DNA from: an uncultured virus (IMG/VR IMGVR_UViG_3300042987_002221)
Lineage: Duplodnaviria; Heunggongvirae; Uroviricota; Caudoviricetes
Length of the DNA stretch: 64,000 bases
Virus record (IMG/VR): IMGVR_UViG_3300042987_002221
Span: 1 to 64,000 of that record
Strand: one strand, 5' to 3'
Shown: positions 36,401 to 64,000 of the stretch, piece after piece
Position numbering within the stretch: position 1 is the stretch's first letter
How the letters are laid out: every line of letters begins with the position of its first letter
Translations under genes and position numbers: made by a program
Notes under the pieces: model-generated
The model's input: only the letters and a program-made list of their open reading frames with translations
Database searches by the model: none
What the model was told of the DNA's origin: nothing

Positions 36401-36759
36401 GTACCTACTCCCCAAGTAAATAGTGAACCATCGCTGCGTATTGCTGCTGAATGACAGTATCCTGCACTTATAGTATTCCAACTTGTAGGAATGCTTCCTA
36501 ATTTTCCATAATTATTTTGTCCCCATGCATAAAGGAAAAATGCATCGACCGAAGTCAATGATGCAAATAATGTACCGATGTCAGACCCTGTTTTTTTATA
36601 ATTTGTGGTTCCATATGGTAGACCACATGAAGCAGGTAGGTATAAATTAGATATATCATTGCCTGAAATTCTATAGCCTACGTCGGCAATTTTATTGGTA
36701 GTGCCTATAGGTGCAAATAAATTATCTAAATCAGTGCCATTTACTTTAAATCCGGCCAT
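33433..36759 (-). CDS. RCC1-repeat protein, 1108 aa, 21 blades (3 nested 7-bladed propellers)
   Basis: About 49-aa repeat WTSVSAG..HTAAIRSDG.LFTWG....GQLGD.TT.NRSSPVQIGTSS; N-terminal ~75 aa homologous to the larger paralog. Confidence 0.9.
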   Translation of the reverse strand: MAGFKVNGTDLDNLFAPIGTTNKIADVGYRISGNDISNLYLPASCGLPYGTTNYKKTGSDIGTLFASLTSVDAFFLYAWGQNNYGKLGSIPTSWNTISAGYCHSAAIRSDGSLFTWGVGTSGALGNASTVSESSPIQIGASSWTSVSAGLNWNLAVRNDGSLFVWGANASGQLGDGTTVDKSSPIQIGTSSWTSVSAGRTVAAGLLSNKLFTWGSNDSGQLGLGDTTNRSSPVQVGTNNWTKVSAGRDHILAISDTNKLWAWGNGGSGQLGDGTVINRSSPVQIGSNNWVDISASLGSFFSTGIRQDNLLFTWGAGSFGQLGIGLSSGDRCSPVQVGANTWCKVSAGVNFATAITTANLIFAWGTGTNGRLGNNSTIDRSSPVVIGSSNWTVTSSGGFHTLALLNNNTVYTWGLGSSGRLGDLNTVNRSSPVLIGFTTVNRSTPSQIGTNSWVSVSAGPSHVAAIRNDRLLFTWGRNLDGQLGDDTTTNRSSPVQIGTNSWANVSVGQAHTVGILLGGRLFTWGFGANGRLGDNSNVNRSSPVQVGTSCWISVSAGQYHTAAIAANRKLFTWGWGANGRLGDETTVDKSSPVQIGTSSWISVSGGGSHTAAIRSDNILFTWGLNTSGQLGTCTDVYSWTTVSAGNVHTAAIRSDGALFTWGAGSSGRLGDGTTTDRSSPIQIGTSSWTSVGAGVFHTGAIRVDGRLFTWGLGTLGRLGDGTTNRSSPIQIGASSWTTISAGAAHTTALRIDGALFTWGYNRFGQLGDNATANRSSPVQIGIDSWITVSAGGTHTAAIRSDNILFTWGVGSSGRLGNDSTIDRSSPVQIGTGSWITVSAGGTHTAAIRNDNILFTWGVGSSGRLGNDSTIDRSSPVQIGTSSWTSVSAGGTHTAAIRSDGALFTWGLWISGQLGDNATANRSSPVQIGTSSWTTVSAGGTHTAAIRSDNILFTWGARGYGQLGIGTSGNNISSPVQVGENILSSVSSPAQVGTNSWVSETAGENHTAAIRSDSLLFIWGENVFGQVGDNTTFNRSSPIQIGTSSWTSVNAGFSFTAAIRSDNALFTWGRNNFGQIGDNTTINRSSPVQIGTSSWTMVSTGGNTTFGIFS
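34141..34410. repeat. Near-identical 147-nt tandem blade duplication within the RCC1 gene
   Basis: ACTTGACCTGTCAATAGTAGAATCATTTCCTAATCTACCTGAACTACCTACTCCCCATGTAAATAAAATATTGTCG... starts at both 34141 and 34288. Confidence 0.8.
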
Positions 36760-36844
36760 ATTTTAACCTTATGTATAATTTTTATATATTTATTGTATTT
36801 AGTTTTTTTGGGTCATTATAGTTTTGTACGAAGTTCAAATTTTG

Positions 36845-39800
36845 TTACGCCTTTAATAATCCTAAAGTAAATGTGTCACCTGCACCTATCGCAGACCAAC
36901 TATTACTACCTATTGATACTGGACTTGATCTATCTATGGTATTTTGGGTACCTAAACGTCCTGAACTACCTGCTCCCCAAGCAAACAAAAGACCGTCTGT
37001 TCTAATTGCAGCAGTATGTGCTGTGCCTGCACTAATTGCGGTCCAACTACTGGATCCAATTTGTACTGGACTTGATCTGTCAATTGTTGTTCCGTCACCT
37101 AATCTACCTGATGTACCTGCTCCCCATGTAAAAAGTGTATAGTCACTACGTATTGCAGCGGTGTGTGAAGCATTACTATTAACTTGACGCCAACTATTAA
37201 AATTAACAAGTATTGGTGATGATGATTGGCTTATTCCGCCTAAAACAGTGAGTGTTGAAGTAGTCTGTGTGACAGTTGAGTTATTTCCTATTTGTCCTGA
37301 CCCTCCTCCCCCCCACATATATAAAAGTGAATTTGATGTGATTCCGCCATTACTTTGAATTACAGTCCAACTTTGTGTACCTATTTGTACTGGACTTGAA
37401 CGGGTATTAGTTGTTCCATCTCCCCAATAATCGCTCCCCCATCCATATATCAAATTAGTGTTATTAATTGCCCAGGTACTACCTCCAAATGATATGTTTA
37501 CCGCTGTCCAACTATTTGTTCCTATCTGCACAGGACTAGAGTTTGTAGTTCTTGTATTATCTCCTATTTGTCCTGATGTATTTGATCCCCAGGTAAATAA
37601 TGCACCATCAGCGCGAATTGCACCGGAGTTATAACCTCCTGCACTAATTGCGGTCCAACTACTGGATCCAATTTGCACTGGACTGTTTTTGTTTATTGTT
37701 GTTCCGTCACCTAATTGTCCTGATGTATTTGATCCCCAGGTAAATAACGCCCCGTCACTTCGCAAAGCAATTGCATGTCTGCGTCCGGCTGAAACTTGAG
37801 TCCAACTGCTGGTTCCTATGTTCACTGGGCTAGTGTCAAATGCTACTCCTGAACCTTGACCTAATTGCCCTACACTATTATCACCCCAACTAAAAAGTCT
37901 CCCATCAACGCGAATAGCAAAACTTGTAAGTTCGGTTGCTGCTGCAATTGCAATCCAACTGCTGGTTCCTATTTGTACTGGACTAGAATAATCAATTTGG
38001 TTACCTTGTCCCAATGCTCCGTTAGTTCCTCTACCCCATGCAAATAATCGCCCGTCGATACGTATAGCTAAACTAACATTGGTTCCTTGACTAATAGCAG
38101 TCCAACTGCTTGTTCCGATTTGTACTGGACTCGACCTATTGATTTTGGTGTTGTCACCTACTTGTCCAAAATCATTAAGGCCCCAACTAAACAATAAATC
38201 GTCATTACGTATCGCTAATACTGTGTTAACGACAACAGATAAATTCTTCCAAGTTAGAGGTGCAGTATTTCCAAATTGTCCATATCTATTACTTCCCCAT
38301 GTATATAAATATCCATCACTTCGTATAGCATGTGCATTTATGTAACCTGCAGTTACAGCGGTCCAACTGCTTGAACCAATTTGTACTGGACTACTACGGT
38401 TAACCGTAGTTCCGTCTCCCAAACGTCCGCTACTGTTTAATCCCCATGTAAATAATGAGCCATTATTTTTGATTGCAGCAGTAAAGGGGCCATTTTTACC
38501 GGCACTGACACTAGTCCAACTGCTTGTTCCTAATTGAACTGGACTTGATCTGTTTATTGTAGTATCATCACCTATTTGCCCTGAACTGTTACTTCCCCAT
38601 ACAAATAATGCATTGTCACTTCTTATTGCCGCAGTATGTGATGCACCTGCACTTATACTAGTCCAACTACTTGATCCAATTTGTATAGGGCTTGATCTGG
38701 ACAATATTGTGCCGTCCCCAAGTTGACCAAGATTATTACTCCCCCATGCAAATAATAATTTATCACTTCTTATTGCCATAGAATGAGACGCACCTGCACT
38801 TACGGATGTCCAACTACTTGTGCCTATTTGATTAGGGGATGAAGTATCAATTGGTTGTCCTCCTACTTGTACTGGACTTGATCTATTGATTGTAGTGTTG
38901 TCACCTATTTGTCCTGATGCATTTGCTCCCCATGTAAATAATAAGCTATCTTGTTTTATTGCTGCTGTGTGAGTAATACCTGCACTTACACTAGTCCAAC
39001 TGCTTGTTCCAATTTGTACTGGACTTGATCTGGTTATAGTGGTATTGTCACCTATTTGTCCTGATGAATTGAATCCCCAGGTAAATAATGAACCATCAAT
39101 TCTTATTGCTGCTGTGTGAGTACCACCTGCATTTACGGTAGTCCAGCTACTTGTTCCAATTTGCACTGGACTTGATCTATTAATGGTGTCGTTTGTCCCT
39201 AATCTACCCGAACTGCCTGCACCCCAAACAAATAAACCATTATCTTGTCTTATTGCAGCAGTGTGCGTTGCACCTGCACTTACAGATGTCCAACTGCTAT
39301 TTCCAATTTGAACTGGATTAGAAAAAGAAGTTATTAGTATACCTCCTAATACAACTGGACTTGATCTAGCGATAGTTGTATTATCACCTAATTGTCCTGA
39401 AGTTCCTAATCCCCAAGCATATAATGTGTTATCAATTTCTAGTCCTAAAGTTGAATTACCACCACTACTAATTGTAGTCCAACTACTTGTTCCTATCTGT
39501 ACCGGACTTGATCTGTTAATAGTAGTATTATCACCCAATTGACCTGATGAATTTAATCCCCAGGTAAATAAAGCACCATCACTTCTTATTGCAGAGGTAT
39601 GAGTGAAGCCAGCACTTACAGATGTCCAACTGCTTGTTCCAATTTGTACTGGGCTTGATTTACTAATAGTTGTGCCATCTCCTAAACGTCCTGAACTACC
39701 TAAACCCCAAGTAAATAATGCACTGTCTGTTCTAATTGCTGCTGCAAAACAACATCCCGCACTTACTGATGTCCAACTGCTGGTTCCAACTTGAACTGGA

Positions 39801-42800
39801 GAAAAAACCTGTACTGGATTTATATTACCTAAAATTAATGGTGTTGAGTTGCTTATATTGGTGTTATTACCTATTCTTCCTGAACTTCCTTCACCCCAAA
39901 TATATGCTACAGCGGTACTATCAATTGCTGACATAAAATCTTGTCCTGCACTTACTGATGTCCAACTACTTGTTCCAATTTGCACTGGACTTGATCTGTT
40001 AATAGTAGTATTATCACCCAATTGACCTGATGAATTGAATCCCCAGGTAAATAAAGCACCATCACTTCTTATTGCAGCAGGATTTGATGAATTTTCACCT
40101 GCGCTTACAAATGTCCAGCTGCTTGATCCTATTTGGGCGGGGATTGATCTATCTATGGTATTTCCATCACCTAATCTACCGTTAGCTCCTAAACCCCAAG
40201 TAAAAAGTAAATTGTTTGAATTTATAGCTGCTGCAAAATTATATCCTGCACTTATTGCTATCCAACTACTAGTGCCTACTTGCACTGGAGAAGAAACTAG
40301 CAATGGGTTGATATTGCCTAATACTACTGGACTTGATCTAGTTATATTAGTGTTATCACCTATTCTACCTGAAGTACCATATCCCCAAAGATATGCAACA
40401 GAGCTGTTATCAATAGCCGACATAGATGCAGAACCTGCGCTTATACTAGTCCAACTTCCGGTACCTATTTGTACTGGACTTGATCTTCTAACTGTCGTAC
40501 CGTCTCCTAATGCTCCTAAACCATTACAGCCCCATGTAAATAGTAAACCATCATTACGAATTGCTGAAGTAAAATTAAGTACTCCTGCACTTACACTAGT
40601 CCAACTACAATTGCCAATTTGCACTGGAATGGATCGATTTATAGTTGAATTATCTCCTAGTTGACCGAAAAGATTATGTCCCCAGGTGAATAAGCCTCCA
40701 TCGTTACGGATAGCAGCAGTGAACAGATCCCCGCCTGCACTTACTGTTGTCCAACTACTTGATCCAACTTGCACAGGTGATGATCTTGGTTCTACAGCAA
40801 TACTGCCCACTAACACCAATGACGATCTACTTGTAGTTGAGTTGTTGCCTAATTGACCAGTATTTGCCGCACCTGTAATTTGTAAATCAGATGATAATAG
40901 TCCTATTACTCCTGTATTATTTCCCCCTGCGCTTACTTTAGTCCAAGTACTAGCACCGATTAGTACTGGACTTGATCTGTTAACTGAAGTGCCGTCTCCT
41001 AATTGTCCGTCAAGTCCTCTTCCCCATGTAAATAAAGTATTATTAATTGTTATTGCAGCAGTATGCGCTTCTCCTGCGCTTACTGCTGTCCAGCTATTTG
41101 TTCCTACTTGTACTGGGCTTGACCTAGCAATAATTGAATTATCACCTAATCTACCACTTGTTCCATATCCCCAAGTAAATAATGAACCACCTTGCCTTAT
41201 TGCTACTACATGTGCTTGTCCTGCGCTTACGGCTGTCCAACTACTCGTTCCAACTTGCACTGGACTGGATCTATTTAGTGTACCGCCATCACCCAATCTA
41301 CCATTTGAACCTGCTCCCCAAGTAAATAATCTACCGTCGTCATTTCTTATCGCAGCAGTCATTTGAAGTCCTGCACTTATAGTAGTCCAACTACTTGTGC
41401 CAATTTGCACTGGGCTTGATTTACTTGTTGTAGTACCGTCGCCCATTTGCCCGAAATTATTTAATCCCCAAGTAAATAACAAACTATCCGATTTGGTAGC
41501 TACTGTATGAGAACCACCTGCAGCTACGGCAGTCCAACTACTTGTGCCGATTTGTACTGGGCTTGATCTATTAATAGTTGTGCTATCACCTAATCTACCT
41601 GCACCACCTGCTCCCCAAGTAAATAAAGCACCGTCTGTTCTAATTGCGGCTGTGTGTGCAACTCCGGCACTTACACTGGTCCAACTGCTTGTTCCAATTT
41701 GCACTGGACTGGATCTATTTATTGTAGTACCATCACCCAATTGTCCATAGTTATTTAATCCCCAAGCATATAATATGTTAGTATTTGTTATAGCCGTAAC
41801 ATGAGAACGACCAAAAGAAACTGCATTCCAGCTTAATACTGCTGTTACTTCTCCTAATTGTCCTGATGCATTATCCCCCCATGTAAATAATGCACCATCC
41901 TGTCTTATTGCTGCGGTATTTCCATTTCCTGTACTAACAGTGGTCCAGCTACTTGTTCCAAGTTGTACTGGACTGGATCTATTTAGTGTACCGCCATCAC
42001 CCAATCTACCTGATGTTCCGAATCCCCAAATGAATAAAGAACCATCCTGTCTTATTGCTGCTGTGCTATAGGTTCCTGCACTGATACTAGTCCAACTGCT
42101 TGTTCCTACCTGTACTGGACTTGATCTGTTTACGGTTGTGTTGTCTCCTAATTGCCCTACACTATTAGAACCCCAAGTAAATAATCTTCCATCACTTCTT
42201 ATAGCTGTGCTATGTGAAAATCCTGCACTTACTGATGTCCAGCTGCTTACACCTACTTGTACTGGGCTTGACCTATCAAAAGTGTCTCCGCTTCCTAATC
42301 TACCTGCACCACCTGATCCCCACGTAAACAAAAGACCATCTGATCTAATAGCTAATACTTGTCCATTTCCTGATGCTATCGCGTTCCAACTTTGAACAGC
42401 AGTTAACCATCCTAATTGTCCGCAACCTCCAGTTCCCCATGTAAATAGTCTTCCGTCATTTCTAGTGGCTGCTGTAAAGTTATTTCCTGCGCTAACGGTA
42501 GTCCAACTACTTGTTCCAATTTGTACTGGACTAGACCTATTAACGGTATTACTGTCTCCTAATCTACCTGTTGCACCGCATCCCCAAGTGAATATTGAAC
42601 CATCTAATCTTACTGCCGCAGTATGAAAACATCCTGCACTTACTGTTGTCCAACTACTAGTTCCTATTTGTACCGGACTTGATCTATCAATTGTAGTATT
42701 GTTTCCCAAACGACCTGCACCACCTGCTCCCCAAGTAAATAATCTTCCGTCACTTCGTATTGCAGCAACGTGAGTGGCCCCTGCATCTACACTAGTCCAA

Positions 42801-45800
42801 CTACTTGTTCCTATTTGTACCGGACTTGATCTATCAATAATGTCATTTGTCCCTAATCTACCCGAACTACCTGCTCCCCAAGTAAACAAACCACCATCTG
42901 ATCTAATAGCGGCGACATTCCCTACTCCGGATGAAATTGTTGTCCAACTTTGAACAGTGGTTAGCCAACCTAAATTTCCTCCTCTTCCATATCCCCATGT
43001 AAACAATGCACCATCTAAACGTATTGCAGCGGTATTATAAAATCCTGCACTTACACTTGTCCAACTGCTTGTACCAATTTGTACTGGACTAAACTTATTA
43101 ATAGTAGTTCCATCACCTAATCCACCACATAGACCGCATCCCCAAGTAAATAATGAACTACCATTTCTGATTGCAGCAGTATGTGCAAAACCAGCACTCA
43201 CACTTGTCCAACTACTAGTTCCAATTTGCACGGGACTTGATCTATTAATGGAACCGTCATCACCTAATTGTCCATCAAGACCTCTTCCCCAAGTAAATAA
43301 TGATCCATCCTGTCTTATTGCTGCTGTGTGTGCATTTCCGGCACTTACACTAGTCCAACTGCTCGTTCCTATTTGTACTGGGCTTGATCTATCAATTGTA
43401 GTATTATCACCTAATCTACCACTTGTTCCTGCTCCCCAAGTAAACAAACCACCGTCTGTTCTAATTGCAGCAGAATGTGATGCACCTGATGCAATTGATG
43501 TCCAACTTTGAATAAATTCAGTTCTTCCTAATTGTCCAAAATTATTAAGGCCCCAACCAAATAAAGCTCCATCATTCCTTATGGCCATCATATATGGACC
43601 GCCATCACTTGAATTTACAGATGTCCAACTACTTGTTCCAATTTGGACTGGACTTGATCTGGTTATAGTGGCATTGTCACCCAATTGACCTGATGCATTT
43701 GCTCCCCATGTAAATAATGAGCCATTACTTCTGATTGCCGCAGTTTGACTATTTCCTGCACTTACTGATGTCCAACTACTAGTTCCTATTTGTACTGGAC
43801 TTGATCTATTAATGGAACCGTTATCACCTAATTGTCCAACATTATTAAGGCCCCATATAAATAATGCACCATCTTGTCTTATTCCTGCTGTATAGTAAGT
43901 TCCTGCACTAACGGCAGTCCAACTACTTATACCTACTTGAGTTGGCACAGATACGGACGTAGTTATAGCACCTATTTGTGCTGGTATTGATCTAGATATG
44001 GTATTTCCGTCACCTAATAAACCGTTAGCTCCTAAACCCCAAGTAAACAAAGTCTTATCAAGGTTAATTGCCAATGTTTGAAAACAAAATCCTGCATTTA
44101 CTGTTGTCCAACTAGCTGTACCTATTTGTACTGGACTTGATCTATTAGTTCTTGTACCATCACCCAATGAACCCCGAATATTATATCCCCAAGTAAATAA
44201 TATACCATCATTTCTAATTGCCGCTGTAACTACATTACCTGCACTTACAGTAGTCCAACTACTTGTTCCAATTTGAATTGGACTTGATTTATCTACAGTA
44301 GTTCCATCACCTAATTGTCCTGTTGCATTACTCCCCCAGGTAAATAATGAATCACCTTGTCTTATTGCAGCGGTATGAAAGCGTCCTGCACTTACTGTTG
44401 TCCAACTACTAGTTCCTATTTGTACCGGGCTTGATCTATCAATGGTGTCATTTGTCCCTAATCTACCCGAAGTACCTAAACCCCAAGTAAATAATGCACC
44501 ATCTTGTCTTATTGCTGTTGAATGTAAGTATCCTGCACTTATTGTTGTCCAGCTGCTTGTTCCAATTTGTACTGGGATTGAATTATTGCAAAGGTTGCAT
44601 CCTACTAAAGTTGGATTACTTCTATTTACAATTGAACTTGTTCCTAATCTACCACTTGTTCCTGCTCCCCATGTATATAAAAAATTATTCCCGTCAATAG
44701 CTCCGGCATGATTAGTTCCTCCTCCCAAAATAGTCCAACTACTTGTACCAATTTGCACCGGACTGGATCTATCAAGAGTGGTTCCGTCACCTAATCTACC
44801 TGCACTACCTGAACCCCAGCTAAATAAAAGTCCGTCATTTCTTTTTGCAATAGTGCTAACGTTTGCGCTAAATATCGCAGTCCAACTATTTGTTCCAATT
44901 TGCACTGGACTTGATCTGTTATCAGTGTCATTTAGCCCTAATTGTCCATAAATATTGCTCCCCCAGGTAAATAAAGCGCCATCACTTCGTATAGCAGCAC
45001 TATGAGACTGCCCTTCACTTATAACTGTCCAACTGCTTGTTCCTATTTGTACTGGACTAGATTGAAGGCCAATGGAATTGTTTCCTAATTGGCCAGTGGC
45101 GTTGAATCCCCAAGTAAACAATCCGCCATCATTTCTAATTGCCATTGTAGTTGCATTACCTGCACTTACACTTGTCCAACTGCTTGTACCGATTTGTACT
45201 GGACTTGATCTACTAGTTACAGTTCCGTCACCTAATTGCCCTACATTGTTTCGCCCCCATGTGAATAAAGTGTTATCACTGCGTATTGCTACTGCATGTG
45301 TGTTTCCTGAAGCAACAGTAGTCCAGCTACTTGTACCAATTTGAACTGGACTTGATCTGTCAATCGTTGATTGGTCTCCCACCTGTCCATGATTATTTCT
45401 ACCCCAAACAAAAAGTGAATTATCTTGTCTTATTGCTAATGTAGTATATGCACCTGAAGCAACAAAAATCCAACTACTTGTGCCAAGTTGAACCGGAATT
45501 GATCTGTTTATATTGTCATTTAGCCCTAATTGTCCAAAACTATTGCTCCCCCAGGTAAATAAAGCGCCATCACTTCTGATTGCAACGGAATGAGTTGAAC
45601 TTGAACCTGAGCCAATTGTACTCCAGCTATATAAAGGTGTCAGTTGTGTAGTTTGTCCTGATTCATTTCCTCCCCAAGTAAATAATGCACTATCAGTTCG
45701 TAATGCGATAGTATGAGAAAGACCCATGCTTACTGCTGTCCAACTGCTTGTTCCTATTTGAACTGGACTTGATCTATCAATTGTTGTTCCGTCCCCTAAT

Positions 45801-46432
45801 CTACCTGAACTACCTGCGCCCCAAGTAAACAATGCACCGTCATTTCTTATTGCAGCAGTTTGTTGTGGTCCTGCACTTACTGATGTCCAACTACTTGTGC
45901 CTATTTGCACAGGACTGGATTTGTCAATAGTCGAACCATCACCTAATGCTCCTTGAGTATTAACTCCCCATGTAAATAAAATACCATCACTTCTTATAGC
46001 AGCAGTATGAAAACCCGAGCTTATTGATGTCCAACTATTAATTAGTCCTAATTGACCTGATGCATTTCCTCCCCAAGTAAATAATCTACCATCACTTCTT
46101 ATAGCAGTTGAATGATTTGTTCCGGCACTAACTATATTCCAACTATATATAGGAGTTGTTATTGCGGTTTGCCCGTCAGAATTACCTCCCCATGCATATA
46201 AAAATAAGGTAGCTGGACCCAATGAACCATAAGCAGCAAATAATGTTCCTATATCACTGTTGTTTTTAAAAATATTGGTTGTGCCGTAAGGCGTTCCGAA
46301 CTCTGCACCTGCATATAAGTTAGATATATCTGACCCTGAAGATAAAAATCCAGTGTCTGCAATTTTGGTACAGGAACCTATTGGAGCAAATAAAGTGTCT
46401 AAATCTATACCATTAACTAAAAATCCTGACAT
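36845..46432 (-). CDS. Giant RCC1-repeat protein, 3195 aa, 63 blades (9 nested 7-bladed propellers)
   Basis: Same repeat as the paralog; AATAAATA on the minus strand at 46440-46447. Confidence 0.9.
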   Translation of the reverse strand: MSGFLVNGIDLDTLFAPIGSCTKIADTGFLSSGSDISNLYAGAEFGTPYGTTNIFKNNSDIGTLFAAYGSLGPATLFLYAWGGNSDGQTAITTPIYSWNIVSAGTNHSTAIRSDGRLFTWGGNASGQLGLINSWTSISSGFHTAAIRSDGILFTWGVNTQGALGDGSTIDKSSPVQIGTSSWTSVSAGPQQTAAIRNDGALFTWGAGSSGRLGDGTTIDRSSPVQIGTSSWTAVSMGLSHTIALRTDSALFTWGGNESGQTTQLTPLYSWSTIGSGSSSTHSVAIRSDGALFTWGSNSFGQLGLNDNINRSIPVQLGTSSWIFVASGAYTTLAIRQDNSLFVWGRNNHGQVGDQSTIDRSSPVQIGTSSWTTVASGNTHAVAIRSDNTLFTWGRNNVGQLGDGTVTSRSSPVQIGTSSWTSVSAGNATTMAIRNDGGLFTWGFNATGQLGNNSIGLQSSPVQIGTSSWTVISEGQSHSAAIRSDGALFTWGSNIYGQLGLNDTDNRSSPVQIGTNSWTAIFSANVSTIAKRNDGLLFSWGSGSAGRLGDGTTLDRSSPVQIGTSSWTILGGGTNHAGAIDGNNFLYTWGAGTSGRLGTSSIVNRSNPTLVGCNLCNNSIPVQIGTSSWTTISAGYLHSTAIRQDGALFTWGLGTSGRLGTNDTIDRSSPVQIGTSSWTTVSAGRFHTAAIRQGDSLFTWGSNATGQLGDGTTVDKSSPIQIGTSSWTTVSAGNVVTAAIRNDGILFTWGYNIRGSLGDGTRTNRSSPVQIGTASWTTVNAGFCFQTLAINLDKTLFTWGLGANGLLGDGNTISRSIPAQIGAITTSVSVPTQVGISSWTAVSAGTYYTAGIRQDGALFIWGLNNVGQLGDNGSINRSSPVQIGTSSWTSVSAGNSQTAAIRSNGSLFTWGANASGQLGDNATITRSSPVQIGTSSWTSVNSSDGGPYMMAIRNDGALFGWGLNNFGQLGRTEFIQSWTSIASGASHSAAIRTDGGLFTWGAGTSGRLGDNTTIDRSSPVQIGTSSWTSVSAGNAHTAAIRQDGSLFTWGRGLDGQLGDDGSINRSSPVQIGTSSWTSVSAGFAHTAAIRNGSSLFTWGCGLCGGLGDGTTINKFSPVQIGTSSWTSVSAGFYNTAAIRLDGALFTWGYGRGGNLGWLTTVQSWTTISSGVGNVAAIRSDGGLFTWGAGSSGRLGTNDIIDRSSPVQIGTSSWTSVDAGATHVAAIRSDGRLFTWGAGGAGRLGNNTTIDRSSPVQIGTSSWTTVSAGCFHTAAVRLDGSIFTWGCGATGRLGDSNTVNRSSPVQIGTSSWTTVSAGNNFTAATRNDGRLFTWGTGGCGQLGWLTAVQSWNAIASGNGQVLAIRSDGLLFTWGSGGAGRLGSGDTFDRSSPVQVGVSSWTSVSAGFSHSTAIRSDGRLFTWGSNSVGQLGDNTTVNRSSPVQVGTSSWTSISAGTYSTAAIRQDGSLFIWGFGTSGRLGDGGTLNRSSPVQLGTSSWTTVSTGNGNTAAIRQDGALFTWGDNASGQLGEVTAVLSWNAVSFGRSHVTAITNTNILYAWGLNNYGQLGDGTTINRSSPVQIGTSSWTSVSAGVAHTAAIRTDGALFTWGAGGAGRLGDSTTINRSSPVQIGTSSWTAVAAGGSHTVATKSDSLLFTWGLNNFGQMGDGTTTSKSSPVQIGTSSWTTISAGLQMTAAIRNDDGRLFTWGAGSNGRLGDGGTLNRSSPVQVGTSSWTAVSAGQAHVVAIRQGGSLFTWGYGTSGRLGDNSIIARSSPVQVGTNSWTAVSAGEAHTAAITINNTLFTWGRGLDGQLGDGTSVNRSSPVLIGASTWTKVSAGGNNTGVIGLLSSDLQITGAANTGQLGNNSTTSRSSLVLVGSIAVEPRSSPVQVGSSSWTTVSAGGDLFTAAIRNDGGLFTWGHNLFGQLGDNSTINRSIPVQIGNCSWTSVSAGVLNFTSAIRNDGLLFTWGCNGLGALGDGTTVRRSSPVQIGTGSWTSISAGSASMSAIDNSSVAYLWGYGTSGRIGDNTNITRSSPVVLGNINPLLVSSPVQVGTSSWIAISAGYNFAAAINSNNLLFTWGLGANGRLGDGNTIDRSIPAQIGSSSWTFVSAGENSSNPAAIRSDGALFTWGFNSSGQLGDNTTINRSSPVQIGTSSWTSVSAGQDFMSAIDSTAVAYIWGEGSSGRIGNNTNISNSTPLILGNINPVQVFSPVQVGTSSWTSVSAGCCFAAAIRTDSALFTWGLGSSGRLGDGTTISKSSPVQIGTSSWTSVSAGFTHTSAIRSDGALFTWGLNSSGQLGDNTTINRSSPVQIGTSSWTTISSGGNSTLGLEIDNTLYAWGLGTSGQLGDNTTIARSSPVVLGGILITSFSNPVQIGNSSWTSVSAGATHTAAIRQDNGLFVWGAGSSGRLGTNDTINRSSPVQIGTSSWTTVNAGGTHTAAIRIDGSLFTWGFNSSGQIGDNTTITRSSPVQIGTSSWTSVSAGITHTAAIKQDSLLFTWGANASGQIGDNTTINRSSPVQVGGQPIDTSSPNQIGTSSWTSVSAGASHSMAIRSDKLLFAWGSNNLGQLGDGTILSRSSPIQIGSSSWTSISAGASHTAAIRSDNALFVWGSNSSGQIGDDTTINRSSPVQLGTSSWTSVSAGKNGPFTAAIKNNGSLFTWGLNSSGRLGDGTTVNRSSPVQIGSSSWTAVTAGYINAHAIRSDGYLYTWGSNRYGQFGNTAPLTWKNLSVVVNTVLAIRNDDLLFSWGLNDFGQVGDNTKINRSSPVQIGTSSWTAISQGTNVSLAIRIDGRLFAWGRGTNGALGQGNQIDYSSPVQIGTSSWIAIAAATELTSFAIRVDGRLFSWGDNSVGQLGQGSGVAFDTSPVNIGTSSWTQVSAGRRHAIALRSDGALFTWGSNTSGQLGDGTTINKNSPVQIGSSSWTAISAGGYNSGAIRADGALFTWGSNTSGQIGDNTRTTNSSPVQIGTNSWTAVNISFGGSTWAINNTNLIYGWGSDYWGDGTTNTRSSPVQIGTQSWTVIQSNGGITSNSLLYMWGGGGSGQIGNNSTVTQTTSTLTVLGGISQSSSPILVNFNSWRQVNSNASHTAAIRSDYTLFTWGAGTSGRLGDGTTIDRSSPVQIGSSSWTAISAGTAHTAAIRTDGLLFAWGAGSSGRLGTQNTIDRSSPVSIGSNSWSAIGAGDTFTLGLLKA

Positions 46433-54811: not shown

Positions 54812-55822
54812 ATGTCAGTTCAAGAATCAAATACCACATTGAGCATATACAATGCTCTTTCTAACTTTCCAAATGGATTAATCGCCGAATATATAAACAC
54901 AGGTGTGTCGGTCAACGATGGCACTGGTGATTCATTTAGATTAGCGTTCAATAAGATAAACAATAATTTTGTGTTATTGTTTAACTTTTTTAATTTATAT
55001 TTTGGTACTACAGAATTACAACCTGAACTAGTTAGTACAGGTGTTTTACCTAACGATGGTAAAGGTGACAGTTTTATGGTTGCTTTTACCAAAATAAATA
55101 ATAATTTTGCAAATGTACGTAATATTGTTTCTTCGATAGAGGGGTTGGGTAATGTAAATTTTCAACCAATAATATTAGGTAAAAAGTATGCGGATAACTG
55201 GCATCAAGCTTTTCTTAAGATCAACGATAATTTCCAACAAATTTTTGATCTATTGAATAGCAAAATAACAATTGAAGTATTAGACCCAGAACCATTAGTA
55301 AGCCAAACTGAAATCACAGTACAAACTTCAATGGTTGTATCAGATCCAGTCGTTTTTGATTTATTATCGACCCCGGCTACTAATGCACAAGAAATAATCA
55401 ATATTGGTGCATTGCCCAACGATGGTACAGGTGATCCACTAAGAACTGCTTTCGGTAAGATCAACAACAATTTTACAACGTTATTCAATACCGCTAGTGT
55501 ACCAGAAAGTGCTAATACTACAGGTAATACCCCTGGACAAATTATATTTGATACTGAAATATCTAACTTTAATAGTGCAATGTTTACAGTTAGAAGCAAA
55601 GATAACTTTGCTAATAGCCAAAACATTACTTTATCAGCACAGATAAGTAATGACAATAGTAGTGTTGTGTTTTCTGCGTATGGCACAACATTTATAGGAA
55701 CTCCAATATGTAGATATGATATGGCTATATCTGGTTCAAATTTACGAATATTATGTAATCCAATCACTTCTAATAATTTAACGCATACCATTTATTCACA
55801 ACTACTGGTTGAACCAACATGA
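54812..55822 (+). CDS. Structural protein with repeated T4 gp9/gp10-like N-terminal motif
   Basis: NDG(T/K)GD.(F/L)..AF.KINNNF occurs three times, plus one degenerate copy. Confidence 0.65.
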   Translation: MSVQESNTTLSIYNALSNFPNGLIAEYINTGVSVNDGTGDSFRLAFNKINNNFVLLFNFFNLYFGTTELQPELVSTGVLPNDGKGDSFMVAFTKINNNFANVRNIVSSIEGLGNVNFQPIILGKKYADNWHQAFLKINDNFQQIFDLLNSKITIEVLDPEPLVSQTEITVQTSMVVSDPVVFDLLSTPATNAQEIINIGALPNDGTGDPLRTAFGKINNNFTTLFNTASVPESANTTGNTPGQIIFDTEISNFNSAMFTVRSKDNFANSQNITLSAQISNDNSSVVFSAYGTTFIGTPICRYDMAISGSNLRILCNPITSNNLTHTIYSQLLVEPT

Positions 55823-56220
55823 GAGCAAAAGAATTTATTACTGAACAAACATCACTTGATGGCATCCACGACGGATTAGATGTTGCTGCTAAAACATTAC
55901 CCTACACTTATACTGTAGATCAATTGAAAAACCAAGATTTCTATGATTTGTATCGTTTTGGTGTTGCTATAGCTGATGTTAGAGGAACAAGCATAGATGA
56001 TGGTGTAAATAACTTCAAACCAAAATTTGAAGCTGAGACATTATGGAATGAAAAACAGGTTGTAAGTAGTTTTGATAAGGATGTAGGTAAGGTAATTGAT
56101 CAGGCTTTGAAAAAAATCGGCAAAAAAGGTAAAACTATGGTAAGTTCGCCAGGAAGTGAAGAATTAGATGATGTTGATAAAACCTCTCCGATAAAACCCT
56201 TCAAAGGATACAAAAAATGA
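55819..56220 (+). CDS. Putative head-packaged protein
   Basis: MRAKEFITE leader; C-terminal KPFKGYKK. Confidence 0.55.
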   Translation: MRAKEFITEQTSLDGIHDGLDVAAKTLPYTYTVDQLKNQDFYDLYRFGVAIADVRGTSIDDGVNNFKPKFEAETLWNEKQVVSSFDKDVGKVIDQALKKIGKKGKTMVSSPGSEELDDVDKTSPIKPFKGYKK

Positions 56221-56588
56221 GAGCCGATGAATTTGTATTTGAAGAAAAAAAGGGAAAACTTTCCAACAGACAACGTATGGCAACCAGAGGCATTCATACT
56301 TTTAGCGATACAAATTATGATCGTGGATATGATTTAAACCGAGTAATGATGGCAGTAGCATCAACAGATGGAACTACAATGCCAGATATGGATGGTGAAA
56401 GTTGGAATGCAAAATATAATACAGCACATCCATATTCAGAGGTAGAATCTGATATGCTCAAATTGGCATATAAAGCAGTGGGTATTCCACATAAAGATCA
56501 TAATCACGGTGACATGCGGAGCCAAGAGTTAAAATCAACTAATACACAAAGTGTTGTTAAGCCATTTAAGGGCTACAAGAAAAAATAA
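56217..56588 (+). CDS. Putative head-packaged protein, paralog of the preceding gene
   Basis: MRADEFVFEE leader; YDLxR..xAxA and KPFKGYKK motifs shared with 55819-56220. Confidence 0.55.
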   Translation: MRADEFVFEEKKGKLSNRQRMATRGIHTFSDTNYDRGYDLNRVMMAVASTDGTTMPDMDGESWNAKYNTAHPYSEVESDMLKLAYKAVGIPHKDHNHGDMRSQELKSTNTQSVVKPFKGYKKK

Positions 56589-59735: not shown

Positions 59736-61283
59736 ATGAGTGGAACATCTACTTTAGTAAAAACACCTTATACAAAAACAATATTCAAAACACAAAAAGA
59801 ATTGGATGATTTTGTAAAGTGTTGTGATCCAATAAATGGTTATCTATATTTTATGGATAACTTTTTCTATATACAACATCCTACACGAGGTAGCATGTTG
59901 TATCATCCGTGGCCTTACCAAGAGAGGCTTATAGAAACATATCACAAATATAGATTTAGCATTAGTTTGATGCCTCGTCAAAGCGGAAAGTCAACTAGTG
60001 CAGCTGGCTACTTACTGTGGTATGCAATGTTTGTGCCTGATTCAACAATATTAATTGCAGCACATAAGTATACTGGTGCTCAAGAAATAATGCAACGTAT
60101 CAGGTATGCATATGAAAATTGCCCTGATCATATCAAAGCAGGTGTTACCACTTATAACAAAGGGTCTCTTGATTTTGAGAATGGATCTCGTATAGTTTCA
60201 GCAACAACAACTGAAAATACAGGTCGTGGTATGGCTATTTCCTTATTATACTTGGACGAATTTGCATTCGTTAGACCTAGCATTGCTGAATTATTCTGGA
60301 CTTCTATTACACCTACTTTGGCAACAGGTGGTAAAGCAATAATCACAAGCACACCAAATAGTGATGAAGATCAATTTGCACTAATTTGGAAACAAGCAAA
60401 CAAATGTCAAGATGAATATGGTAACGAAACAGAATTAGGAATAAATGGTTTTAAAGCATATAAAGCACATTGGAGTGAACAACCAGGAAGAGATGATAAA
60501 TGGGCTAAAGAAATGGAAGCTCAACTTGGTACAGAACGCTTTAGACGAGAAATAGGATGTGAGTTCGTTATTGCAGAAGAAACATTGATATCACCAACTA
60601 CATTAGTTGATTTAAATGGTATAGAACCCGTCAGTAGAATGGGACAAGTTCGTTGGTATAAACGTCCAGAAAAGGGAAATATCTATACTGTGGCTTTAGA
60701 TCCTAGCTTAGGTACTGGATCAGACCCTGCAGCAATAGAAATCTATGAAGCAAACACCACTACACAAATTGGTGAATGGAAACATAATAAAACAGATATC
60801 CCAAATCAAATAAAATTACTAGCACAGATAAACAAATATATTGCAGAATGTACTAACGAACCAGACAGCATTTATTATTCAATTGAAAACAATAGTATAG
60901 GGGAAGCTGCGTTGATTTCATTAACCGAATACGGAGAATCAAACATTCCTGGTGTCTTTTTAAGTGAGCCGGGAAAAAAACGTAAGGGCTTCAATACAAC
61001 TCATAAAGTAAAATTAGCCGCTTGTGCTAAATTTAAAACATTAGTTGAAACAAAAAAACTAAAAATCAATAGTAAAAGTTTAATCAGTGAATGCAAAACT
61101 TTTGTGGCATTAGGTGGAAGTTATGAAGCAAAGACAGGTGAAACAGATGATTTAGTAATGGCATCACTATTATCAGTAAGAATGTTTCAGGTGTTGGGTG
61201 ATTATCATTACAATCTAGAAGAAAGAATTAGTGACCACGATGAGTTTATACAACCATTACCCTTCTTTGCAGTGCTAAATTGA
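59736..61283 (+). CDS. terL: Terminase large subunit (T4 gp17-like)
   Basis: YQERLI, Walker A PRQSGKST, Walker B LYLDEFAF, TSTPN, nuclease ALDPS and DDLVMA; ATG at 59736 follows AATAAATA (59723-59730). Confidence 0.93.
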   Translation: MSGTSTLVKTPYTKTIFKTQKELDDFVKCCDPINGYLYFMDNFFYIQHPTRGSMLYHPWPYQERLIETYHKYRFSISLMPRQSGKSTSAAGYLLWYAMFVPDSTILIAAHKYTGAQEIMQRIRYAYENCPDHIKAGVTTYNKGSLDFENGSRIVSATTTENTGRGMAISLLYLDEFAFVRPSIAELFWTSITPTLATGGKAIITSTPNSDEDQFALIWKQANKCQDEYGNETELGINGFKAYKAHWSEQPGRDDKWAKEMEAQLGTERFRREIGCEFVIAEETLISPTTLVDLNGIEPVSRMGQVRWYKRPEKGNIYTVALDPSLGTGSDPAAIEIYEANTTTQIGEWKHNKTDIPNQIKLLAQINKYIAECTNEPDSIYYSIENNSIGEAALISLTEYGESNIPGVFLSEPGKKRKGFNTTHKVKLAACAKFKTLVETKKLKINSKSLISECKTFVALGGSYEAKTGETDDLVMASLLSVRMFQVLGDYHYNLEERISDHDEFIQPLPFFAVLN

Positions 61284-61310
61284 TAAATAGATTTATTACT
61301 AAGAGATTTT

Positions 61311-64000
61311 ATGCCAAAAAACAATGAATCACTAAACAAAGAACTGTATAGTTTGCTAAAAACTAGAGGATTCGATCCTATTCCAAAAGATGCTACTGGA
61401 GAAACTAGTCCAGTGCCCGATGATGCAGATGTATTTAAATTCACCTTTAAACATGACAATCAAGTTAAAGGTACAGCATATGCAACTATTGACGGAAACA
61501 ACACATTAACAGTTTATTATGATGATGAGGTTGTTAGCGAAGAAGTAGGTGGAGTAGATGATGTAAATATGAGTTGGACCAACTTTTTAAAGTATCTAAA
61601 AATGTGGGCACAACGTAGACAAATGGGTTTTGATTTAGAAAACAAAGATCATTTACACAGTGATATGGCACAAAGAGATTATGTTAAGAAGCAAGAAGTT
61701 GCTGAAAGTAAAAAGAAATTGATGAACAAAGGAACAACCATGCCAAACATAAGTGAAGGCTATTATGCTATGGGGAAAAACAGTAGTTATAATGATAACA
61801 TTCCTACTGTAAAAATAATTTTACAACATTCAAGGCAAATCCAAGAAGGTGAACAACGTTATCGTAATGTTGCAAGAATTTATTTAGAGAATACCCAAGG
61901 TGAAAGATTTTTAGCACCCACTGTAAAGCCTGGCATTGCACAAGTATATGCTAGACATTTAGCAGAAGGCGGTAGTGTTAATGATGAACGTTGGAATCAC
62001 ATCAAATCATTATGTGAAGAATATAGCAAAATGGCAGGGTTTGTTCGTGCAGTTCGTGGAAATCAATTCAATGAATCAGCACAGAAGTTAGTAGAAGCAG
62101 GATTGAACCATTATGTTTCATTAAGAGAAACATTAGGTAAGATGCGTGGTAATCGTGGATACAATAGTTATTTTGAAAGTTGGACTCCTACATTAATGGA
62201 GACTGATGGTGATGAAACTTCCATCAATGAATTGTTTGTTCAAGAGACATTAGATCCAAGAATTGAAAGTGTAATGCCTATTCTTTCTAAATTGAGTAAA
62301 AATTTAAGTGAAGTAAAAGAAGTTAAAGAACTAGAAGAATGGGCTAATGGTTTACTTGAAGCACCAGGTGCAGAAACATTAGCACATAACCAATCTACAG
62401 CAAAGTCTAATTTAAAGTCATTTGATTTAGAAGAAGACAGTGTAAATGAAGGTTGGTTTGCTGACACATTAAAAAGTGTGGGGAAGGCTGTATTAGACAA
62501 GCTGGCCCCAAATGATAAACAATTATTACTAAAACTACAGAGAGATATGGGAGTTCCTACAACCGCTCAACATGGTAAACCATCAATGGCAAGAATGATG
62601 AGTGATGAAGAAGTTCAAAAATTAATTGCTGCGGCTAGAAAAGTCAATGCTGGCAGAAATTCTAGTTTATCTGAAGAAGAAGTTGAAGAAAGTGGACTGC
62701 AGGCGTATTTAGGAAACAAGAAATACGGCAAAGACGGCATGGATTCATTACGCAAAGCAGGTCGTGAAGGTGCGAGCAAAGAAAAGATGGCAAAGATTCG
62801 CGCCAAATATGATAAGTTAGATGAAGAAGGTTTGGGACCAGAACAAAAACGTGTTGGTCAACTTGGACCAACTGAAAAGGTTAAGAAAAATAGTGGTGCC
62901 AGAGGTAAACTAGTTGGTGCCAATGAAAGTGTAGAGCAAGGTGTGGCGGAAGGCTCGACTAATAAAACACTGTTTGTTATTTACTATAAAACAGGTAAGG
63001 GATTTGACGCTGGTACTGGAGATGTAGGAATACTTGCATCCAATGAACAAAAAGCAAAAGAAAAATTTGCAAAAAAATATCCTCACTTTATTGTGACTAA
63101 AATAGTAGAAGGTATGAAATATGTTCTTGTTGATTACCGTGGAAATTATTATAAAGGCATGGATAAGTTTGGTAGAAATCTTTCTACTAGAAATCCAGAA
63201 GAAGCCGAAATATTTAATTTAGAGCGTGACGCTAAAGATATAGCATTATGGACTAGAAATAGATTTAAGGCAATACCTTGGTCAGGTCAGCGAGGTGTGG
63301 CGGAAGGCTTGCCTGGTAGTCTAAGTGCTAGTGATTATATGCCGGGAGCAACTTTACCACACACTAACTGGAATTGTATTAAGTGTAGTGGTCATAAGTT
63401 TATGTACAGTTTAGATGGAAAATTAACTAAAGATAATAAAAAAGGTGCAATAAGAGTTAAATGCCCTGATTGTGGCGGTTCTGGGTTAAAGAAACCTGAC
63501 CCCGGTCACGATTATTTTGGTCGAAAGAAAGAGGAAGGTGTGGCGGAAGGCTCTGAGCAAGACCTAGTATATATTTCAAAAGACCGTGCCGAGGCTTTTG
63601 AAGAATGGATGAACAGTGAAGGTCTTGAAACTAATGTTCCTAAAAATGATTATGGAACATATATTGTTTATAATTATTCTAACGAAGATCCTACTTCAAA
63701 ATTATATGCCAGTGAATGGAATGAAAGAAGAGAAGGTGTGGCGGAAGGCACCGATGATCCTAACCCCTCAGCCGGTCCAGGATCTATATCACATTCAACA
63801 CCGGTAAGACGTAATGGCAAAGATGTTGGTGAATTATTTCAAACTAAATCAGGTAGTTGGGGATTCTTTATCAATACGTCAGCCAAAACTAAAGAAGGCT
63901 TTGAGAGCAAAGAAAAAGCACTGGAAGCGATGAAACAACATTTGGGGCAAGGTATGGCGGAAGGCATGGAACAAGAATGGGAAGTAAGTTTTGAACATGG
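61311..64000 (+). CDS. Large 3'-truncated putative head/internal polyprotein (>896 aa), absent from the ORF track
   Basis: Translated by hand from the ATG at 61311 (MPKNNESLNKELYSLL...) with no stop before the window end; GATAAATA at 61282-61289; many [ILVA]xE|(G/S) sites. Confidence 0.85.
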   Translation, partial: MPKNNESLNKELYSLLKTRGFDPIPKDATGETSPVPDDADVFKFTFKHDNQVKGTAYATIDGNNTLTVYYDDEVVSEEVGGVDDVNMSWTNFLKYLKMWAQRRQMGFDLENKDHLHSDMAQRDYVKKQEVAESKKKLMNKGTTMPNISEGYYAMGKNSSYNDNIPTVKIILQHSRQIQEGEQRYRNVARIYLENTQGERFLAPTVKPGIAQVYARHLAEGGSVNDERWNHIKSLCEEYSKMAGFVRAVRGNQFNESAQKLVEAGLNHYVSLRETLGKMRGNRGYNSYFESWTPTLMETDGDETSINELFVQETLDPRIESVMPILSKLSKNLSEVKEVKELEEWANGLLEAPGAETLAHNQSTAKSNLKSFDLEEDSVNEGWFADTLKSVGKAVLDKLAPNDKQLLLKLQRDMGVPTTAQHGKPSMARMMSDEEVQKLIAAARKVNAGRNSSLSEEEVEESGLQAYLGNKKYGKDGMDSLRKAGREGASKEKMAKIRAKYDKLDEEGLGPEQKRVGQLGPTEKVKKNSGARGKLVGANESVEQGVAEGSTNKTLFVIYYKTGKGFDAGTGDVGILASNEQKAKEKFAKKYPHFIVTKIVEGMKYVLVDYRGNYYKGMDKFGRNLSTRNPEEAEIFNLERDAKDIALWTRNRFKAIPWSGQRGVAEGLPGSLSASDYMPGATLPHTNWNCIKCSGHKFMYSLDGKLTKDNKKGAIRVKCPDCGGSGLKKPDPGHDYFGRKKEEGVAEGSEQDLVYISKDRAEAFEEWMNSEGLETNVPKNDYGTYIVYNYSNEDPTSKLYASEWNERREGVAEGTDDPNPSAGPGSISHSTPVRRNGKDVGELFQTKSGSWGFFINTSAKTKEGFESKEKALEAMKQHLGQGMAEGMEQEWEVSFEH
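62937..63965 (+). repeat. Five in-frame dispersed direct repeats AGGT(G/A)TGGCGGAAGGC encoding (Q/R/E)-G-(V/M)-A-E-G
   Basis: 18-nt codon-aligned copies start at 62937, 63291, 63534, 63732 and 63948; periods of 354, 243, 198 and 216 nt are all multiples of 3. Confidence 0.92.

Follow-up and report, generated by a model that had tools for sequence, protein, structure and literature searches.

CdiA and Rhs proteins have conserved peptide joints. Among phages, the head cargo of T4 (IPI, IPII, IPIII and Alt) consists of small, basic, variable proteins with a Glu-directed cut site, each encoded by its own gene with a propeptide and bearing a capsid-targeting sequence (accessible parts of PMC9026906 and PMC9391042), and the protease gp21 is described in the former as cleaving after L/I-X-E. 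The PeSLs of RB49 and phi1, as the accessible part of PMC2839356 presents them, are intergenic promoter and stem-loop repeats around whole ORFan genes that are gained, lost and swapped as cassettes; no recombinase was identified, excised mini-circles were demonstrated, and their authors likewise draw a comparison with integrons. Integrons insert, excise and reorder a large pool of mostly unknown cassettes at a short core, with an IntI-type enzyme and attC-type fold-back (PMC8876359, in part). Polyvalent proteins and polymorphic-toxin cassettes are variable and multi-module, are thought to be virion-delivered and processed, and have been proposed to exchange cassettes (PMC5512222, in part).

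Here we describe a 15-nt coding sequence, AAGGTGTGGCGGAAG, hereafter the junction, which is the point where in-frame cassettes insert, delete, duplicate, reorder and move between unrelated genes and phages. Like the PeSLs, it bounds ORFan cassettes with no recombinase identified, but it consists of coding bases in frame, its cassettes lack a start, a stop and a promoter of their own, and the phages that carry it are known here from assembled contigs. It shares with integrons the large cassette pool and the short core. What sets it apart is the fusion of its cassettes within one ORF and their scatter across many unrelated genes, and neither an IntI-type enzyme, in five genomes, nor attC-type fold-back, at the junctions and in their flanks, was found. 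The resemblance to T4 internal proteins extends to a gp21-family protease in a relative (G002) and to targeting-like N-termini on many host genes; unlike T4, junction phages chain many putative cargoes per frame, the predicted cut site doubles as a DNA exchange point, and ORF 61311, the host gene of the array, has a large conserved N-terminal domain and no targeting sequence of about 10 residues by the pattern scored. Polyvalent proteins have recognisable effector or LPD domains, several per chain, while 137 of 150 junction cassettes had no Pfam match (13 had any), and the accessible text of PMC5512222 describes no shared DNA-and-protease junction. A literature search found no description of the junction system, most subscription papers and supplements lying outside its scope, and the words "polyprotein" and "cassette" are absent from the accessible parts of PMC12619734 and PMC7824862.

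The window, that is, the whole stretch of 64,000 nucleotides analysed, is part of a freshwater giant phage genome (G000, 35% complete). Its relevant features are as follows.

59736..61283, + strand, terminase large subunit (context only)
61311..64000, continuing to G000:64190, + strand, host gene, an ORF of 959 aa
61566..62294, + strand, conserved domain (aa 86-328), phrog_13484, ~27% identity to YP_010678936
62361..62937, + strand, older module region, short modules between degenerate hydrophobic-x-Glu sites
62938..62952, + strand, junction 1
62952..63293, + strand, cassette 1, 114 aa, pI 9.7
63292..63306, + strand, junction 2, first base of the 15-mer changed
63306..63536, + strand, cassette 2, 77 aa, zinc-ribbon-like with two CxxC pairs
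63535..63549, + strand, junction 3
63549..63734, + strand, cassette 3, 62 aa, acidic, pI 4.3
63733..63747, + strand, junction 4
63747..63950, + strand, cassette 4, 68 aa
63949..63963, + strand, junction 5, GTG>ATG, reads GMAE
63963..64000, ending at G000:64133, + strand, cassette 5, 57 aa, small beta-beta-alpha-beta fold
G000:64132-64146, beyond the window, junction 6, following cassette 5

The frame opened at 61311 stays open to the window end, as a reading of the sequence alone had indicated, and the genome places the stop at 64190. Over its full genomic length, the ORF holds six junctions and five cassettes, and its C-terminal tail, GQEDLDALKKLMGK, lies outside the window. The TerL gene lies on one side and an ssDNA-binding protein gene on the other, with a UvsX-like gene downstream at G000:65627. 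The window part of the ORF has no Pfam family. Its conserved N-terminal domain is homologous, over 27% of the ORF at ~27% identity, to YP_010678936, a virion structural protein of the jumbo phage PA5oct whose record carries an ESI-MS/MS note (Arenbergviridae; PMC7318152, in part). The PA5oct gene likewise has TerL upstream and UvsX downstream; it differs in being 1491 nt long without a cassette tail, in a genome without the junction. In the older module region, orthologues keep, lose or replace modules without a DNA junction.

The five repeats noted in the sequence-only reading are indeed present (GGT at 62940, 63294, 63537, 63735 and 63951), spaced by 354, 243, 198 and 216 nt, which corresponds to 118, 81, 66 and 72 codons, and junction 1 reads Q-GVAE/G, the slash marking the predicted cut. 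The single G>A change ascribed to the fifth copy was found; as it turns GTG into ATG (Val to Met), it is not silent. At up to one mismatch, the five matches compare with a shuffle mean of 0.02, and none of 100 shuffles reached five. A whole-genome scan located the sixth repeat near the window end (G000:64134), and a second G000 gene holds two further ones (G000:116570 and 116888). Among the GC-rich codons that this reading pointed out, GTG and GCG are rare: across the genome, GTG accounts for 9.6% of Val codons, GCG for 7.2% of Ala codons and GGC for 13.7% of Gly codons. That the array is an assembly chimera arising from repeat collapse has a practically negligible probability. The motif does form the contig end in some cases; against this, contigs from a separate study (X3) span junctions 2, 3, 5 and 6 with zero differences, an X8 contig spans junction 1, the 15-nt repeat is short relative to reads, and all five cassettes are in frame. 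Among the 4 of 20 runs compared, junction 4 is bridged in X1 only, possibly the source run of the window; joints with short sides were left out of this evidence.

Orthologues document the exchange. Alleles identical over residues 140-340 carry zero (P0004), one (P0005), two (P0006) or, in the window, five cassettes, and the switch falls exactly on the junction; the two cassettes of P0006 are different ones, and its tail is as in L132. L132 and the window share flanks with DNA identities of 95% and 99%, and the match breaks off at the first and last junction. Across related loci, 351 cassettes with a median length of 74 codons form 264 clusters (families), 202 of them singletons, and the sample is far from saturation. 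Among 32 cassette pairs with at least 90% DNA identity, both neighbours differ in 25, one in 5 and none in 2. Presence, absence and order of modules vary among orthologues with breakpoints at the junction, and the same modules occur in other junction-bearing genes, as cassette 2 does in L533 and L534. The proposal that cassettes are gained, lost and shuffled at the repeat is therefore borne out by the allelic series, the L132 breakpoints and the neighbour-swapped pairs. In L284, a tandem duplication (one case) was formed by a crossover that joined a two-mismatch copy with a consensus copy. The GVAE frame of the longest open frame contains 213 of 218 exact core matches. With regard to polar insertion at a single attI site, mutated cores in 88 arrays amount to 50% at first, 36% at middle and 40% at last positions, which gives no clear gradient.

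Several other accounts of the motif were rejected. Its restriction to cassette 3' ends is not supported, since the motif is missing from similar shares of the homologues of upstream flanks (728 of 1100) and of downstream flanks (736 of 1126). The idea that a core gene or tRNA harbours a master copy was rejected because all matches with at most one mismatch in G000-G002 and G006 lie in accessory or host ORFs; in the same genomes, no match with up to three mismatches lies outside ORFs. Bacterial origin was rejected, as a 20-mer gave six stretches in the GTDB collection, five being single ones in records of 55-68% GC and one a phage-like contig in a MAG. Nor do these ORFs have a second DNA-conserved linker, the top 12-mers overlapping the same junction.

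Within the window array, cassette 1 is composite, as an internal IVE/G site at 63110 splits two sub-modules; P0002 and P0003 have the second but not the first. Cassette 1 has no relatives in IMG/VR and three in the protein collection, and its top Atlas score of 0.81 is a lead only. Single-sequence AlphaFold gave a poor cassette model (mean pLDDT 43); the top PDB matches to the cassette model were ribosomal eL20/LX-like chains (Z 7.5, rmsd 1.7, 56 aligned), with T7 gp2, T4 Dmd and AcrIE2 at Z 4-5, and a function based on these was rejected because they share a common small fold. Cassette 2 is 99% identical in DNA within the different host gene of L533 and L534. Cassette 3 recurs in P0001 beside different neighbours, cassette 4 has weak relatives after the junction in L095, L102 and L105, and cassette 5 is the sole cassette of the P0005 allele. 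Window cassettes had at most weak matches to Pfam or PHROG, and PADLOC matched 0 of 9 sequences, the five window cassettes included.

The conservation had been suspected to act on DNA as well as peptide, and this holds without selecting on DNA: among 34 GVAE sites picked from orthologues by peptide, 31 use GTG, 31 use GCG and all 34 use GGT, against backgrounds of 7.8%, 5.1% and 58%. Most sites were found by exact-motif search, which inflates absolute conservation, and only this peptide-selected codon count and comparisons between positions are free of that bias. At 805 resident sites, G>A changes number 37 and 43 at two silent positions and 35 at the P4 Gly, compared with just 4 at the codon of the P1 Glu (p 1e-7, a value that overstates independence because sites and pairs are related). 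Glu is retained at 797 of the 805 sites, and P3 is V, M, L or I at 802.

Preservation of the P1 Glu and a hydrophobic P3 while silent bases decay fits the gp21 rule of T4, although the junction has Val at P3 where T4 has Leu or Ile. Because of this selection, the gp21-family protease in a relative (G002:192276-192869, phrog_207 head maturation protease, E 1e-59) and modules that start after targeting-like peptides, we strongly infer that the head protease cuts after VAE. In other genes, modules that elsewhere follow GVAE begin directly after peptides such as MKISELITE and MRAEEFITE, and 62 of 188 hosts, compared with 46 of 1034 control ORFs, have a targeting-like N-terminus by a pattern that is an approximation devised for the present analysis. 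The matches to this pattern in G000 do not include ORF 61311, and the ORFs found in G000, which is 35% complete, do not include the head module. A rival view takes GVAEG for no more than a flexible linker between the domains of a virion protein that stays uncut, and in its favour Val-Ala-Glu departs from the L/I-X-E reported for T4. We judge this improbable, given that Gly and Ala drift while Glu and the hydrophobic residue at P3 resist change, that modules begin in the same register after propeptide-like N-terminal sequences, and that buried Tat-like signals lie a few residues past junction-type sites.

The reading we favour, with moderate confidence, is that of a polyprotein of head cargo whose junction serves two purposes, in which general recombination exchanges the cassettes and the protease releases the cargo. 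General phage recombination, with a UvsX-like recombinase and an ssDNA-binding protein, would act on short perfect homology, and T4 recombination uses microhomologies of 6-10 bp (PMC9391042, in part). Mutated junctions would leave the exchanging pool, so that the commonest spelling renews itself, silent bases included. The junction bases very probably read as a gp21-type site, V-A-E/G. The protein would enter the prohead, in this case probably by means of the conserved domain or else the scaffold-like tail; many other hosts would use a targeting peptide at the N-terminus. The head protease would then release every cassette. By analogy with T4, the small, mostly basic products may leave the virion together with the DNA and form a variable load that acts early, part of which would probably counter host defences. 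Against general recombination, 15 bp is short for DNA movement between genomes, and PA5oct, which encodes UvsX, shows no junction at up to one mismatch.

The exchange zone is sharp-edged, being limited to the 15-mer: bases to -3 follow the upstream cassette and those from +13 the downstream cassette (in 105 and 120 pairs). Across divergent genomes of 36-47% GC the junction keeps one spelling, and core variants are almost never common to both members of exchanged pairs. The edges, the spelling and the absence of the junction from PA5oct despite its UvsX would also fit a dedicated factor, namely an unannotated phage or host recombinase or nicking enzyme that recognises the 15-mer with a fixed left-half crossover, possibly by way of circles, the polyprotein being the same. 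The missing shared variants point the same way, as do the differing cassette order of relatives L326 and L401 and a junction-cassette-junction unit found in one of two orthologue sets (L163/L158 or L151/L196/L199) where the other has the native site without a junction, essentially a single site. We regard such an enzyme as rather unlikely. PF00589, PF00239, PF00078, PF01797 and PF01548 were found in 0 of 5 genomes; tyrosine or serine recombinases, IS110, Y1 and RT thus had no Pfam match in G000-G003 and G006. The PF00589 search used E 0.1 on five genomes, three at least 97% complete, with 14 of 14 controls positive, and controls for the serine recombinase, IS110, IS200/Y1 and RT searches were also positive. 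Screening 121 G002 proteins (of 410 ORFs) shared with G001, G006 or G000 and missing from PA5oct, we found a Pfam family in 60, none a recombinase, the other 61 being without a family. The motif has no dyad symmetry, its consensus fades within a few bases on either side, and inverse 6- and 7-mers are not enriched in 1285 flank segments (135 vs 155 and 31 vs 34). With no Pfam tyrosine recombinase in the five genomes, no inverted repeat at junctions and no inverse-core enrichment in these flanks to suggest an attC-like hairpin, the initial comparison with integrons finds no support as regards mechanism.

In Neisseria, a G-quadruplex at pilE is reported to start recombination. The G-rich coding strand of the junction (GG-TGT-GG-C-GG-AA-GG) might likewise fold into a G-quadruplex of two tiers or give an R-loop: GG tracts 2 and 3 each depend on one of the two rare silent G bases, ViennaRNA predicts a two-tier quadruplex with RNA parameters, and GAG at +11 is commoner where +13 is not G (20/226 vs 8/389). 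This last effect also follows from downstream-travelling host Glu codons and the search patterns, tract bases decay like loop bases, and four GG tracts exist at just 126 of 190 mid-array sites and at neither end of the mobile cassette c114 in L312. We consider a quadruplex trigger very improbable, and as a requirement it was rejected because the set of four tracts is incomplete at the other mid-array sites and around c114. A broader, speculative and unlikely scheme, a family-wide system that generates diversity in aquatic jumbo phages, has an unknown enzyme, acting on a 15-bp site that doubles for the protease, capture mature-protein segments and plug them in frame into any head-targeted gene, which would equip each virion with a reshuffled injected set including anti-defence proteins and Tat-addressed proteins with an export signal that only the cut unmasks.

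Cassettes may also be cut in the head but act mostly as passengers or core filler, the latter being basic peptides that aid assembly or bind DNA. The junction would then spread like a selfish joint that is tolerated because an in-frame insert flanked by cut sites does no harm. This view agrees with the exchange, recombination and cleavage steps, and we think it possible, if not likely. Alleles without cassettes exist (P0004, L133), 34 of 55 distinct and complete orthologue tails are without G[VM]AE, and 61% of cassette families have a pI >8. In T4, the IP genes are dispensable, and IPIII influences head assembly (PMC9026906, in part). On the other side stand the large pool with its many singleton clusters, matches of some cassettes to GNAT, deaminase or Tat signals, and the cassette 5 model, which resembles stand-alone phage proteins of 53-55 aa (target TM 0.83-0.86, E >0.001).

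Under the favoured polyprotein reading, the same 15 bases would bring together two processes known from T4, the shuffling of cassettes through repeats and the freeing of head cargo by a protease. Since exchange point and cut site share bases, a swapped-in piece would remain in frame and ready for cutting. The junction thereby offers a search handle for hundreds of putatively pre-trimmed small proteins, candidates for injected host-takeover or anti-defence factors, and the role of variable T4-type internal proteins becomes testable at library scale.

The host gene opens at 61311 and its frame stays open to the end of the window, as the sequence-only reading had stated; it stops at 64190 in the genome (G000) and encodes 959 aa. 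The five repeat copies, or junctions, were confirmed at their reported periods (chance mean, 0.02), and a sixth lies directly beyond the window end. The features concerned are as follows:

55819-56220, 56217-56588, 15392-16270, and 17595-18263: small genes whose products begin with targeting-like peptides (MRAKEFITE, MRADEFVFE, MQIKELITE, and MRAYQFE)
33433-46432, minus strand: two very long ORFs, of 1108 and 3195 aa, that resemble each other at the N-terminus; repetitive antisense ORFs
61282-61290 and G000:64230-64240: GATAAATA, ahead of the host gene and of the next gene, which we take to resemble the T4 late promoter
62361-62937: older modules with degenerate Glu-site bounds, gained and lost among orthologues without a DNA junction
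G000:64200-64223: inverted repeat directly behind the stop codon, a probable terminator; further 24-nt inversions like it are found farther downstream
G000:115802-118207 (L131:4803-7208): gene with two further repeat copies bounding one 106-codon cassette, which also occurs at locus L085 with other neighbours; the C-terminus of its product resembles a presumed scaffold tail

Bridging of the array was checked on assembled contigs from four sequencing runs, of which X1 is a possible source: contigs from X3 span junctions 2, 3, 5, and 6 with zero differences, and one from X8 spans junction 1. These four belong to 20 runs from 13 studies, mostly of freshwater and some of wastewater, that each contain half or more of the words sampled. 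G000 is a 35%-complete record; three relatives measure 338-349 kb. Among 50,697 phage records, matches to residues 86-328 are confined to the PA5oct group (11 Pseudomonas phages, about 27% identity). The annotation of the PA5oct homologue names it a virion structural protein seen by ESI-MS/MS, and its gene neighbours are those of the window gene. Genes for an ssDNA-binding protein and a UvsX-like protein lie downstream of the host gene in G000. The related genome G002 encodes a head maturation protease (phrog_207) and a major head protein (phrog_138), and the gene between them, rich in hydrophobic-x-Glu sites, is by position the presumed scaffold.

Cassettes move, and they do so at the repeat. 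Three related proteins (P0004, P0005, and P0006) are identical to the window protein over residues 140-340 and share its left flank and tail, yet hold no cassette, cassette 5 alone, and two unrelated cassettes, respectively, against five in the window, which bears out the proposal that the repeat is a site of cassette gain, loss, and shuffling. Module content varies among orthologues, and the variation is bounded by the junctions. At locus L132, DNA identity to G000 is 95% as far as junction 1 and returns, at 99%, with junction 6. Cassettes of the window gene were also found in other settings: cassette 2 recurs as 99% identical DNA in a different host gene, adjoining one of the L132 cassettes, and P0001 holds cassettes 1 and 3 with a new one in between. 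Elsewhere, L326 and L401 have common cassettes in changed order. Among the matches listed, at least 721 distinct junction sites yield at least 351 cassettes (median 74 codons) in at least 264 clusters, at least 202 of them singletons, and 25 of 32 scoreable cassette pairs with at least 90% identity differ in both neighbours. Rough clustering sorts the 188 hosts whose 5' end is intact and whose GC is below 52% into 96 N-terminal families.

At L284 (around 2300-2720) and L119, a 67-codon cassette is tandemly duplicated, the first two joints being a two-mismatch junction. P0005 carries an insert behind a GLAEG variant; this insert and the older modules at 62361-62937 may mark junctions that have decayed or another, less strict way of exchange. 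A four-junction array on a 9-kb contig (L546, 38% GC) in a Bacteroidetes MAG is probably a mis-binned phage fragment and carries no weight as host evidence.

DNA conservation of the junction exceeds what the peptide needs, as had been suspected. Among 34 distinct GVAE peptides in orthologues chosen by N-terminal protein homology alone, GTG was used in 31, GCG in 31, and GGT in 34 (background 7.8%, 5.1%, and 58%), whereas VAE without a preceding Gly has ordinary codons (GTG in 4 of 31). When sites with only one flank in common are compared, bases through -3 track the cassette on the upstream side, and those from +13 onward track the one downstream, which delimits the exchange zone as AAGGTGTGGCGGAAG. 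Exchanged pairs rarely share core variants, so mutated junctions seldom join in exchange; variants just outside the core are common to about 77-88% of pairs. A junction can also arise at native Glu sites that have none in relatives (essentially one site, several pairs).

The sequence-only reading had proposed an integron-like array, which was not supported: no match to a tyrosine recombinase family, nor any match to serine recombinase, RT, Y1, or IS110 families, was found in five genomes (positive controls worked), and the junctions gave no inverse-core signal. A screen of 121 G002 proteins, of which 61 have no family assignment, likewise gave none of these. General recombination on short homology is therefore the favoured driver, also because T4 amplifications and deletions arise at 6-10 bp microhomologies (available part of PMC9391042), the intergenic PeSL cassettes of T4-type phages shuffle without an identified recombinase (available part of PMC2839356), and the crossover of one duplication lies inside seven bases common to mutated and consensus junction copies. 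The commonest junction spelling would then renew itself. A dedicated factor is unlikely, although the sharp edges of the exchange zone, the single junction spelling across genomes of 36-47% GC, and the lack of a junction in PA5oct would suit one. A G-quadruplex is compatible with the junction letters but fails as the agent of exchange, as some mobile cassettes lack a fourth tract.

As a peptide, GVAE is very likely selected as a predicted cut site. In 805 resident sites with no more than two mismatches, the two silent G bases have 37 and 43 G>A changes, against 35 at Gly, 33 as Val>Met, and 4 at Glu; T>C changes number 17 at a silent base and 3 as Val>Ala. The silent bases of resident junctions thus drift, while the P1 Glu and P3 hydrophobic residue are held. 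The T4 prohead protease gp21 cleaves after L/I-X-E, and internal protein (IP) propeptides have ten residues (available part of PMC9026906). Modules found behind GVAE also occur directly behind N-terminal peptides with a final Glu, and targeting-like N-termini begin 62 of 188 host genes versus 46 of 1034 controls, the window host gene not being one of them. The small window genes with such N-termini, of which 17595-18263 hits a PHROG of T7-type protein kinases at E 1e-10, are candidate stand-alone head cargo. The host-gene tail resembles C-termini of presumed scaffolds in G002, G006 (another relative), and PA5oct, a lead only, since the pattern was made after the sequences were seen.

Judged by eye, 13 of 22 RRxF matches in long ORFs look like Tat signals that include a hydrophobic stretch. 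Most of the 13 are internal to a longer protein, a few residues past GVAE or a Glu site like it; the window's gene has none. Cleavage could unmask such buried signals in polyproteins. Twin-arginine-type signals a few residues past predicted Glu cut sites were seen at L222:8830-9609, L269:2665-3087, L281:2197-2502, L310, L376, L299, and L016.

The array is real, and delivery and shuffling of these kinds are already known; for the junction, no account was found in the literature searched (main texts, few of them subscription papers). As far as the available parts of the sources go, the array resembles T4 internal proteins in its predicted delivery and PeSL cassettes in shuffling but differs from each on a defining test, and it departs from integrons (PMC8876359). 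Polyvalent proteins are set apart from it by their known effector domains (PMC5512222).

A Pfam scan covered 150 cassettes, namely window cassettes 3 and 5 and 148 of the cluster representatives, taken from the longest down. Thirteen had any match: to DUF6321, deaminase, GNAT, or Tat signal, or one of a few weak others. Among the matches listed, 61% of 264 cluster representatives have a pI above 8. A low-confidence model gives small beta-beta-alpha-beta domains for cassette 5 and for cassette 1 in its first half, and one of these matches stand-alone phage proteins of 53-55 aa. Cassettes may possibly be filler or passengers. For part of the pool, an anti-defence role is a reasonable guess by analogy, since T4 needs IPIII on one E. 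coli strain and has in IPI an inhibitor of a type IV restriction enzyme (available parts of PMC9026906 and PMC9391042).
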